Below the pieces are notes generated by a model, which did not search any database, had not been told where the DNA came from, and saw only the letters and a list, made by a program, of their open reading frames with translations. Of a stretch of DNA of 64,000 bases, positions 50 through 48,824 are shown piece by piece (within the stretch, counting starts at the first letter, position 1; every line of letters begins with the position of its first letter). This stretch comes from a virus (Duplodnaviria; Caudoviricetes), in IMG/VR virus record IMGVR_UViG_3300006201_000010, positions 1 to 64,000 of that record; one strand, 5' to 3'. Position numbers and translations under genes: made by a program.

Positions 50-979
50 TTATGCGATTGTGAAGCGGGGGCGAAGGTAGTCCTCGCTGACCGCGTCGCC
101 GTTGTCCGCACGGCCATTGTCGCCCACAAAGCAGAAGTACCCAGCCGAGGCTACGTCACGCAGCCAGTAATATTCGCTGTTAATCAAGTCAGCAGTATTT
201 AAGCGGAATATCGGAAGTTGGTTTTTAGCAGTACCTGTATCAAAACCGCTTGAAGACCAAATAGTTCCGCCAAAAACTTCCATTTCCGACATAAGAACCG
301 CCTGAACGTCAACCCATGCCCAACTTGACGAAGCACCTGTAGCCTGCCCGAAGCGATTATATCGAGCACTATCTACTGCCGAAGATACAAGTTCTTTAAT
401 CGTTTGTAAGTGCGAGCCAAAAATATCATATAATTGCTCATTAATCGTACCGTTCGGATTGCCTGCGGTTGCTATAGGTCCAAGGATTGTTGTGTGCATT
501 TTTGAACCCTTATATCCGCCAGATGTTGTGGTGCTATTATTCATAGGCTGACAGTCACCAAAGTTTCTATCAGGAATTAAATCTAAGTGATTTTTCTTAT
601 ATGTGTAATAGTTACCCCAATGGCAGTTAAACCCTGCGATTTTGACAATATCTGTACCGCTATTATCACAATCGTCGCCAACCACTTTTACTACGCGAGG
701 CATTTTAATAAAATCGCCTATGTACAAATCCTCGAAAGGCGCAAAACCGTTTGTGCCCGCTATTCTGTCGTACAGCGATCCGTCGTTAAAGTACGACGTT
801 ATGTCCTTGCCACGGTAAATCGAGTTATGAAAACCCGCCGTATTAAGGTCTGCCGTATTAAGGATTGCATTAAACAGTTCTGCAAATTCAATCCTTTTTG
901 TTCCCTCTTCGCCGTCGTGAACTATTGACTGGTTCTTGGAAGGAACACCCTTTTGTAAGTCTTTGATGGTTATACCCAT
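50..979 (-). CDS. DUF6273-like C-type-lectin-fold tail/receptor-binding protein; DGR target 1
   Basis: HNSIYRGK...DLYIGD N-terminus and YWLRDV...FC.V...G.A....A......LRPRF C-terminus typical of Firmicutes phage DGR targets; last gene of the tail fibre module in the window. Confidence 0.8.
   Translation of the reverse strand: MGITIKDLQKGVPSKNQSIVHDGEEGTKRIEFAELFNAILNTADLNTAGFHNSIYRGKDITSYFNDGSLYDRIAGTNGFAPFEDLYIGDFIKMPRVVKVVGDDCDNSGTDIVKIAGFNCHWGNYYTYKKNHLDLIPDRNFGDCQPMNNSTTTSGGYKGSKMHTTILGPIATAGNPNGTINEQLYDIFGSHLQTIKELVSSAVDSARYNRFGQATGASSSWAWVDVQAVLMSEMEVFGGTIWSSSGFDTGTAKNQLPIFRLNTADLINSEYYWLRDVASAGYFCFVGDNGRADNGDAVSEDYLRPRFTIA
68..151 (-). repeat. DGR variable region VR1
   Basis: 67/84 nt identical to 48078-48161; all 17 differences are at codon positions 1 or 2. 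Confidence 0.85.
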
Positions 980-1001
980 AAAAATAAATCTCCTTATTTT
1001 T

Positions 1002-1559
1002 TTATTTGATTTTTAATTTAAAGTTATATTGAATATTGTTACCACTGTCGTCAACGAGCATTTCCTCGTTCGACGTGTAGAGCGGTGCAGATAAGCCCTT
1101 ACCGCTTACACAAGCGTTATAAATATCGTCAACCGTTAAGCCATTGCATTCGGGAATTTCTATCGGCTTAACAAACCAAGGAAGATTGTTCCAGTTTGTT
1201 ACACTGTCACCAATTTTGGCAGAATTATCATCTATGACATAGCCGATAACCCCATTCTCAAGTATAGGGTTTTTTTCTTGCCATTCTTTAAGGCTTGCCC
1301 GGACAATAAACGGCTTTTCTTCTTTAGGCGGCTCGTCGTCTTTGCTGACCATTTTGACATATTTCTTTTCTATGTCGTTCCAGTAATAAAACTCGTTGGC
1401 TGTAGTGTCTATGTACACTAAATTGCCTTTACCTGTGGCGGGAAATTCCGCAACAGATTTTGCTTGAACTACTGCGTTGTAAATAACTGTTGTGTTGCTA
1501 CCGCCACCCGACCCGCCACCACCACCCGCAATGGGGAATGAATAAGGAATTAGAACCAT
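1002..1559 (-). CDS. Tail-associated protein with Mtd_N/hyaluronidase-N-like motif
   Basis: W..KNPIL.NG.IGY..D....KIGD.VTNWNNLPW motif; Gly-rich N-terminus; located in the fibre module. Confidence 0.6.
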   Translation of the reverse strand: MVLIPYSFPIAGGGGGSGGGSNTTVIYNAVVQAKSVAEFPATGKGNLVYIDTTANEFYYWNDIEKKYVKMVSKDDEPPKEEKPFIVRASLKEWQEKNPILENGVIGYVIDDNSAKIGDSVTNWNNLPWFVKPIEIPECNGLTVDDIYNACVSGKGLSAPLYTSNEEMLVDDSGNNIQYNFKLKIK

Positions 1560-1846
1560 AATTGTTGCACCTCTACTTCGCCTGTGCCTTTTATGTAAAG
1601 CGTTTTAGCCTTGGCTTGACCGTTAAATCCGTCACGTTCGTTTATTACGCAAACCTGAGCATAGCCGTTTGAAATCTTAATAGACGTATCTTCCGAAACC
1701 GTATCTTCAAACGATACATAAATATCGCCACCTGAAAAGTTTTTTACGAGATACTGACCGCCGTATGTGTCAAATTCTAATTCCGAAACACCACCCGTAA
1801 GTTGTATTCTTTTTACACGTTGTATGGGTTGATTGTTTTTTGCCAT
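1550..1846 (-). CDS. Hypothetical tail-module protein
   Basis: 98 aa ORF with RBS (GGAG), coupled to the next gene. Confidence 0.6.
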   Translation of the reverse strand: MAKNNQPIQRVKRIQLTGGVSELEFDTYGGQYLVKNFSGGDIYVSFEDTVSEDTSIKISNGYAQVCVINERDGFNGQAKAKTLYIKGTGEVEVQQLWF

Positions 1847-1877
1847 ATTCGGTATTCTCCTTTGATTATTTTTATAA

Positions 1878-47582: not shown

Positions 47583-48006
47583 TCGTGCCGTCCCCCAACC
47601 GCAGTTGTTTGTTTACGAAAAGCTGGTACACAGTTTCGCCAGTCGCAAGGTTATTAAGCATGTAGGGGAAGAAAATCTCGCTCATTGTAACCATTTCGCT
47701 TTCGAGAATTGCCATTTGAGCGTCGATCCAGTCTTTTACAATTCGCCACGCTGTCATTTCCGCCTGTGCATAGTTCGCACCTGACACCTTTTGTTTCTGT
47801 AATACCAGCAAGACCTTTTCGACATTCGCGGGCAAGCGCACAGCCTGTACCCCAAACGGCGTGTCGATTTCAAAGCAAACGGCAACGACCTTTCCGTTGT
47901 CGTAATCGTGAGCAACGCGCCTTGCGCCGTGCTCTGCTAAAATTCCGCTTATTTCGCTGATTGTTTTGTATGCGCTGACTTTTGTCGTGTAATTTTTAAT
48001 AGGCAT
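47575..48006 (-). CDS. Conserved phage hypothetical protein
   Basis: MPIKNYTT...AWRIVKDW. Confidence 0.6.
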   Translation of the reverse strand: MPIKNYTTKVSAYKTISEISGILAEHGARRVAHDYDNGKVVAVCFEIDTPFGVQAVRLPANVEKVLLVLQKQKVSGANYAQAEMTAWRIVKDWIDAQMAILESEMVTMSEIFFPYMLNNLATGETVYQLFVNKQLRLGDGTNG

Positions 48007-48031
48007 AAATTCCTCTCTTTTTTGTGTTTTC

Positions 48032-48054
48032 TCTCACACCGCAAGGGTGTGAGA
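48032..48054 (-). other. Perfect 9-bp hairpin downstream of DGR variable region 2
   Basis: TCTCACACC-cttgc-GGTGTGAGA, 5-nt loop, 23 nt after the VR end. Confidence 0.7.
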
Positions 48055-48056
48055 TT

Positions 48057-48824
48057 TTAGATACCGATTTGGAAATGGGGGCGAAGGTAGTACTCGCCGT
48101 CCGCGCTGTCGTAGTCCGCATAGCCATCGCTGTACACATCGCAGAAGTACACAGCCGAGGCAACCGAGCGAGTCCACTGCCATCTGCCGTACTCTCCGTC
48201 ACGGCAACCCGCAATGCGGTTGCGCCAGTCCTCTTTATAGAGTTCAAACTGTTCGCCCTCCTCGTACATTGCATGAATCTTTCTGCCGTGCAATTCAAAC
48301 TCCGACGGAATGAATACTTTGTCTTCCAAGAATTCTCCGTTGCCTACGTCAATTTTGGTCGGAATTATGTATTTTGCAAGGTCGTCGGGTAGCAACGCAA
48401 GGAAGTCTTCGTTGAGCCACTTGCGAGCAAGTGTCTTTGCATATCCCCCTTTAGTGGTACAACTTTTGTTCATTGCAATTCGCCCGTCGCCGTCGTTTGT
48501 ACCATACAAATCTAAAAGATTAAGAATAACCGCGTTGTCTTTTCTGTGAGTAATTTGTACCGTATAAAACTCACCGTTTTTTAAGGTAATATTCTTTTTT
48601 GCGCCTAAACCTAAAGCCTTTCCACTCTTAGTTTTTAAAATCTCAATAATCTCGTCCCAACTCTTACTGTTAAGGTCTATGGCAATAGCGGGTAGTGGAT
48701 GGTTTACCTCTATGAGCTTACTGCAGGTAGGACACTTTATTGCTGGGATAATATCCGACTCGTCAAATTCCATTGCTGTAAGACAGCCATTACATGTTGT
48801 TACATTCCCTGTGATTACTTTCAT
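48057..48824 (-). CDS. Zinc-ribbon + DUF6273-like C-type-lectin-fold protein; DGR target 2 (early region)
   Basis: N-terminal CxxC...CxxC; W.+...R.WLN..F...LP; KVFIPSEFEL; WTRSV...FC.V...G.A....A....YLRPHF. Confidence 0.8.
   Translation of the reverse strand: MKVITGNVTTCNGCLTAMEFDESDIIPAIKCPTCSKLIEVNHPLPAIAIDLNSKSWDEIIEILKTKSGKALGLGAKKNITLKNGEFYTVQITHRKDNAVILNLLDLYGTNDGDGRIAMNKSCTTKGGYAKTLARKWLNEDFLALLPDDLAKYIIPTKIDVGNGEFLEDKVFIPSEFELHGRKIHAMYEEGEQFELYKEDWRNRIAGCRDGEYGRWQWTRSVASAVYFCDVYSDGYADYDSADGEYYLRPHFQIGI
48078..48161 (-). repeat. DGR variable region VR2
   Basis: Shares all 28 third-codon bases with VR1; flanks are not alignable. Confidence 0.85.

Follow-up and report, generated by a model that had tools for sequence, protein, structure and literature searches.

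The diversity-generating retroelement (DGR) of Bordetella phage BPP-1 (Mtd, Avd, TR, bRT) is arranged in the order target, accessory gene, template repeat (TR) and reverse transcriptase (RT). Its mutagenesis is adenine-specific, its variable repeat (VR) encodes the C-terminal end of a C-type lectin fold and closes, on the 3' side, with a GC-rich block behind which a hairpin is found, and its single target is adjacent. Many phage-associated DGRs combine one adjacent with one non-adjacent target, the latter nearly always less than 50 kb from the RT (Wu et al., PMC5758913); that survey neither characterised the non-adjacent phage targets nor gave their module location. The subject of the present analysis is a DGR with two remote targets in a temperate phage of the mouse gut (Duplodnaviria; Caudoviricetes), IMG/VR record IMGVR_UViG_3300006201_000010. 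The window, by which we mean the whole stretch of DNA analysed (64,000 nt), comprises positions 1-64000 of this 85,792-bp record; the repeats, both target genes and both VRs lie on the minus strand, and nucleotides are given as read on the coding strand. The BPP-1 features listed above recur here, apart from the single adjacent target, and the layout fits the pattern of the Wu et al. survey.

Two-target DGRs with DUF6273 targets have been described in gut phages (PMC10743442). Roseburia phage Shimadzu (LR596903), cited as a two-target phage DGR (PMC11792537), has the arrangement found here, with a tail-fibre target followed by Avd, TR and RT, plus a distant second target. The gene of this second target, the hypothetical protein orf43, has a methyltransferase on one side and an Erf recombinase on the other; its distance from the TR is about 13.8 kb, compared with 39-49 kb between the TR and the second VR (VR2) in the present phage. 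All 15 of the 15 mismatches in the orf43 VR fall at adenines and a hairpin lies downstream. Over the lectin domain orf43 is 35% identical to the second target of the window (target 2), and the Avd proteins can be aligned in part, whereas the Shimadzu genome is of a 45-kb myovirus type and orf43 is without a zinc ribbon. Among Faecalibacterium phages, Lelie and CP11 carry a large and a small DUF6273 target (PMC11792537), and the second VR of Toutatisvirus is located in the core genome, 17,480 nt from the TR (bioRxiv 10.1101/2024.10.15.618418). In all three, one DGR has two VRs in different DUF6273 proteins, as here if the sub-threshold DUF6273 match of the first target is accepted. Their first target is a Hoc-like or tentaclin protein, in contrast to the 309-amino-acid tail-end protein of the present phage, and their host and habitat are human Faecalibacterium rather than the mouse gut; no sequence match to target 2 was found in those phages in GenBank at E 1e-5. 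The entry MG711467 turned out to be Taranis, not Toutatis, with a single adjacent target, and was not used. The two-target layout is genuine here and already described in other gut phages, and because of this published precedent it is less new than was assumed by the sequence-only reading, a first annotation of the window made from its letters. Second targets are probably under-counted, because large metagenome surveys, by their own statement (PMC8144416), miss non-adjacent ones.

The evidence leads us to conclude with confidence that one DGR actively diversifies both genes. The features concerned are the following, all on the minus strand.

1..3: start codon of the Avd-like gene (178 amino acids), placed by the gene order in contigs L025-L028 and L003-L010; the remainder lies beyond the record end
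16..42: GC-rich hairpin after the stop codon, downstream of VR1; its distal arm is a G run here
50..979: target gene 1 (309 amino acids), last gene of the tail module, from the open reading frame (ORF) list
62..149: VR1, 88 nt homologous to the TR, by alignment to the same-strain TR (L025)
48032..48054: hairpin downstream of VR2, with a 9-bp stem and a 5-nt loop
48057..48824: target gene 2 (255 amino acids), with a zinc ribbon, a linker domain and a C-terminal DUF6273 ending in VR2, from Pfam and a structure model
48077..48159: VR2, 83 nt homologous to the same TR, by alignment to the same-strain TR

The starting point was a pair of 84-nt repeats, at 68-151 and 48078-48161, with 17 differences in 12 of 28 codons. 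On the coding strand all differences were confirmed to lie at codon position 1 or 2 and none at position 3. Both repeats are in frame with the ORFs 50..979 and 48057..48824 and sit near the 3' ends, a few codons short of them. Together they form the longest and strongest direct repeat of the window (family D1: 100 nt, 78%), the remaining pairs reaching at most 47 nt at about 70%, except for one unrelated 81-nt pair. Less than 20 nt beyond either edge, identity is down to background, which agrees with the earlier statement that the upstream sequences cannot be aligned. Each repeat has the common GC-rich 3' block; past the stop codon come a hairpin whose loop measures 5 nt and a ribosome-binding site that is identical in the two copies, all as first described. 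A hairpin 23-26 nt downstream is present at both VRs, and likewise at the VRs of Shimadzu and of a further lineage, L042. A block ending CCTTCGCCCCC is common to the VRs and the TR, whose sequences part in the 12 nt that follow. The VR2 hairpin has a folding energy of -9.1 kcal/mol (z -2.9), with 0 of 200 shuffles folding equally well, and the VR1 hairpin forms a perfect 9-bp stem with a 5-nt loop in the sibling contigs. The GC-rich block and downstream hairpin are present at both VRs, and their role in homing is putative. At window 17-26, ten C (G on the coding strand) stand in place of the distal hairpin arm of the 99.9%-identical siblings; there are three base differences from the siblings at the extreme contig end, and the run may be an assembly or sequencing artefact.

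An RVT_1 domain and a third copy of the repeat were sought across the whole 85.8-kb record and neither was found, so that the absence of the TR and RT noted for the window extends to the entire record. Exact-protein look-up of the neighbouring 185-amino-acid gene led to nine near-identical phage contigs (L003-L010 being among the loci compared). The complete contigs show the 309-amino-acid gene, an ORF of 178 amino acids, a 210-nt gap, the RT and an ORF of 94 amino acids, followed by a tyrosine integrase on the opposite strand; the TR is located in the 210-nt gap between the 178-amino-acid ORF and the RT. Four other contigs, L025-L028, encode the VR1 protein of the window exactly and are 99.7-99.9% identical to both record ends, and one of their samples also holds the exact VR2 protein of the window. 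Comparison with L025 showed that the record is a circular genome minus 2,356 nt (L025:4980-7335), and that the missing piece holds the Avd-like gene, the TR, the RT and two small ORFs. The suggestion to look left of position 1 for the cassette, and that the ATG at position 3 might be its start, proved right: positions 3..1 are the start codon of the 178-amino-acid Avd-like gene. Record and missing piece together contain one TR and one RT only. The full circle is about 88.1 kb, and contigs with related target proteins measure 87.5-88.2 kb; the phage is a temperate, siphovirus-like phage of this size. The cut at the record ends (window 1-3; 85792) falls at most 3 nt from ORF boundaries on both sides, and its loss from the record probably reflects a bubble in the assembly or a cut made in processing, not a biological deletion. 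A true loss of the cassette from this genome is unlikely, given that the record ends flank the missing piece exactly, without a junction across it, and that the cassette is kept in sibling samples with identical VRs.

The RT in these contigs (395 amino acids; 393-402 across contigs) matches RVT_1 at E 9e-14 and carries YMDD; compared across its full length with the DGR RT of Roseburia phage Shimadzu, it shows 34% identity. Its best relative in the PDB is 8ub7, a 328-amino-acid reverse transcriptase that we take to be the Bordetella phage DGR RT. DGR RTs have the hallmark motif [LIV]GxxxSQ; the corresponding stretch here is IGSHIAQ, with Ala replacing Ser. From its sequence, the RT that adjoins the TR in the same-strain contigs is classed as DGR-type. 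The 178-amino-acid accessory protein, encoded in the canonical position between target and TR, is interpreted as an Avd that is longer than that of BPP-1 by an insertion of some 50 residues; it is the weakest link of the cassette. Its C-terminal half aligns with the annotated Avd of Shimadzu (BLASTP E 2e-7; 32% over 76 residues), and it has 436 relatives among cluster representatives. The model is all-helical, with a mean confidence (pLDDT) of 84, and its top Foldseek match was 2rld ('S23 ribosomal protein family'; probability 1.0, root-mean-square deviation 2.3, 84 columns), presumably a member of the helical-bundle family that includes Avd.

Of the 88 nt of TR homology, 28 are A and 60 non-A. 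The sequence-only reading had predicted a TR core and mismatches of the VRs at TR adenines. The first 30 nt of the predicted core match the real TR, and one later codon was missed, being TAC and not AAC. The mismatches fell where expected: 17 of those in the window VR1 are at adenines and 1 is not, and all 14 of the 14 in the window VR2 are at adenines, for which the probability by chance is about 1e-7. The same was seen among related loci, with 151 mismatches at A and 2 elsewhere for 11 distinct VR1s from 15 loci, and 161 at A and 2 elsewhere for 12 distinct VR2s from 16 loci. Pooled over both VRs, 312 of 316 substitutions are on the 28 TR adenines. On a single contig carrying VR2 (L040) together with VR1 and TR (L041), 20 and 13 mismatches were counted, 0 of them non-A inside the VRs.

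Targets 1 and 2 have only the VR-encoded stretch of about 39 residues in common, and since their likeness is limited to it they are not recent duplicates. So short a common stretch is also what module recombination could give, and gene conversion between paralogous lectin tips together with diversifying selection, without a retroelement, might be invoked for it. We give this hardly any credence in view of the concentration of substitutions on TR adenines, with none at third codon positions, and of the TR, RT and Avd-like gene that adjoin VR1. It is also contradicted by the TR itself, which is identical in all lineages but one (L010), while the VRs of those contigs all differ. The L010 TR carries T34C, C37G and C69T, all of them non-adenine changes, and these recur in the VR1 of L010, in 7 distinct VR2s and in the VR2 of runs X15 and X17; two of the three sites are listed for the VR2 of run X4. 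Since the changes in the L010 TR are mirrored in both VR1 and VR2, both VRs copy the TR of their own genome. The claim that one TR and RT serve both genes is thereby borne out by the single TR and RT on the circle, the adenine pattern and the covariation with the TR variant.

Variation in both VRs, which had been proposed as a check, was found between and within samples in assembled contigs, and only at TR-adenine sites. In target 2, 16 of 17 variable columns are inside the VR-encoded stretch, and in target 1, 17 of 18, with up to 9 residues per column. The 90% cluster of target 2 holds 225 distinct sequences versus 24 for the neighbouring gene, and that of target 1 holds 64 versus 3 for the neighbouring 185-amino-acid gene. 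The VR2 stretch was present in 20 runs from 13 studies, mostly mouse gut or mouse metagenomes; six of the runs are from one organism, and the isolate runs hold the prophage. In X1, a mouse-gut run and perhaps the source sample itself, the Logan contigs form a bubble exactly at 48058-48181, with two VR2 alleles: one is identical to the window (depth 12.1) and the second (depth 7.8) shows 15 differences, of which the 12 listed are all at TR-adenine sites, the flanks having a depth of 30-33. As judged from these assembled sequences, ongoing diversification in populations is supported.

These data also bear on the status of VR2, which could be imagined as a relic, either a former TR copy or a duplicate of VR1 that is no longer retrohomed, leaving VR1 as the sole active target. 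VR2 is indeed far from the cassette, and its 3' homology to the TR ends 5 nt before that of VR1 (a fixed G to A at position 84). A relic is nevertheless very improbable, since VR2 occurs in 12 distinct forms in 16 near-identical loci and its cluster of 225 proteins varies at adenine sites, since it follows the three non-adenine TR polymorphisms, and since two of its alleles occur together in one run. In addition, the hairpin and the GC-rich block of VR2 are intact.

Several observations nevertheless weigh against an active two-target DGR. The TR and RT are outside the record, so that the link rests on 99.9%-identical contigs of sibling samples. For the accessory protein, Pfam and NCBIfam gave no match to Avd, a PDB profile search also gave no name, and the match of its model to 2rld is weak by E-value (0.23). 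One mismatch of the window VR1, T to A at window 103, is not at an adenine, and three further non-A mismatches occur elsewhere. The variation was seen in assembled contigs rather than raw reads, and gives no rates or allele frequencies. Finally, some populations may carry inactive cassettes while keeping both targets: in the pair L006:12303-13483 and L007:12303-13373 the RT ORF is split into 343 + 50 amino acids or shortened to 356. In most of the non-A mismatches (window 103; L031, L008, L013) T is replaced by A or G, and 3 of the 4 affect the T of a TAC codon in the TR. Such codons may formerly have been AAC there, or there may be a low level of non-adenine error.

In the best-supported reading a single DGR, consisting of the Avd-like gene, one TR and one RT, diversifies the two genes in trans from a cassette placed directly downstream of the tail-module target, just outside the record. 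By analogy with BPP-1, the TR RNA would be reverse-transcribed with random nucleotides opposite template adenines, and the cDNA would replace whichever VR bears the matching GC-rich 3' block and the downstream hairpin. VR1 and VR2 both carry the block and the hairpin, and both appear to be rewritten in natural populations. On the circle VR2 is separated from the TR by about 48.7 kb in one direction and about 39.4 kb in the other. With 11 AAY codons and 5 single-adenine codons, the TR could specify roughly 10^16 different proteins for each target.

Target 1 was called a tail protein in the sequence-only reading, and this fits by position: no tail-module gene follows it, and the tape measure (7655-12445; PhageMin_Tail) lies upstream. 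VR1 encodes the C-terminal 30 residues. Its match to DUF6273 (PF19789), over residues 223-308, reached 19.1 bits (E 0.0013), below the Pfam gathering threshold of 23.5 bits. Most likely target 1 is a distal tail, receptor-binding protein. A C-type lectin fold is supported for target 2 by its model, and is suggested for target 1 only by this sub-threshold match. Target 2 gave a DUF6273 match of 64 bits (E 2e-17), above the threshold. In a Foldseek search against the PDB, neither its model (pLDDT 81.7) nor that of the accessory protein gave a match at E <= 0.001. The fold assignment of target 2 rests on VIA-align: residues 61-255 match TvpA (Z 7.5), Mtd (Z 5.2) and dozens of C-type lectin domains, and the N-terminal domain of a Thomasclavelia IgA peptidase matched at Z 15.5. 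According to this model, VR2 is predicted to encode the C-terminal part of a C-type lectin fold. The same model comparison assigns a DUF6273-type lectin domain to the bacterial protease of PDB entry 9qa6. The N-terminal part of target 2 contains a four-cysteine zinc ribbon, in which conservation is at least 90% for C14, C31 and C34 and lower for C11; an Atlas search with this part added nothing.

The neighbours of target gene 2, also on the minus strand, are as follows.

48821..52472: radical SAM protein, helicase loader, replisome organiser and RecT (upstream early genes), from PHROGs and from Pfam in sibling loci
46425..48006: 143-amino-acid protein, YopX-like protein and VRR-NUC/Holliday-junction-resolvase-like nuclease (downstream early genes)

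The radical SAM gene overlaps target gene 2 by 4 nt, and the earlier designation of target 2 as an early protein fits by its position in this replication and recombination module. Homologues with 36-50% identity are found at like positions in three other lineages. The L042 homologue lies between an ERCC4 nuclease and methylases and has its own TR 8.3 kb away, with 10 of 10 mismatches at A; that of L046 is located amid methylases, after DnaB, DnaG and RecT; and that of L047 comes directly past a cro-like gene and ahead of YqaJ, RecT and SSB. A target-2-type gene is thus present within a replication, recombination and methylase module in five lineages, Shimadzu among them.

Two explanations may be offered for the role of target 2. 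It could be part of the virion, as an accessory protein for receptor binding or decoration whose gene merely lies away from the structural module, both targets then serving adsorption. The phage DGR targets characterised so far are nearly all C-type-lectin proteins that bind surfaces, receptor binding is favoured for the DUF6273 second targets of other phages (bioRxiv 10.1101/2024.10.15.618418; PMC10743442), and the fold of target 2 matches TvpA and Mtd, so that we consider a virion role to have only slightly less than an even chance. It is opposed by the location of the gene in the replication, recombination and methylase module in five lineages, with the L047 copy directly after the cro-like gene, by the 4-nt overlap with the early radical SAM gene, and by the N-terminal zinc ribbon in a protein that lacks the domains typical of tail proteins (fibre, Ig or collagen-like). 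Alternatively, target 2 might belong to a conserved family of early-expressed intracellular binders, in which a zinc ribbon is joined to a C-type lectin fold diversified by a DGR. This fits its position, its zinc ribbon and its lack of tail-type domains, and we propose it tentatively, as a real possibility that falls somewhat short of an even chance.

Searches for related loci in viral contigs yielded none with target 1 and a single short contig with target 2. A scan of metagenome contigs with a degenerate (IUPAC) pattern gave 10 matches, all by chance. A scan of genome contigs using the target-2 alignment returned one distant Eggerthellaceae match only. Two further observations concern other parts of the window. 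The unrelated 81-nt direct repeat is 94% identical between 12469-12549 and 25800-25880, with a partial third copy at 3096-3131; the copies sit at gene-module boundaries of the late region, and the second adjoins tRNA-Met (25889-25963). Close to a tRNA-Ser (GGA), 229 nt upstream, the 3' end of a tRNA is repeated in inverted orientation (window 63330-63361 and 63532-63622), which may be a second, uncalled tRNA or the remnant of an attachment (att) site.

A retroelement that is absent from the record, together with most of its template sequence, was correctly inferred from sequence alone. The phage provides a widespread mouse-gut example of one DGR with two unrelated lectin-fold proteins 39-49 kb apart, and the covariation shows that both genes are live targets. 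If target 2 is indeed intracellular, hypermutation would be used to bind variable molecules inside the host cell and not only surfaces. Target 2 might then be, for example, a self-adapting inhibitor of host defence nucleases or a superinfection sensor, and DGRs would join the counter-defence or exclusion toolkit of phages.

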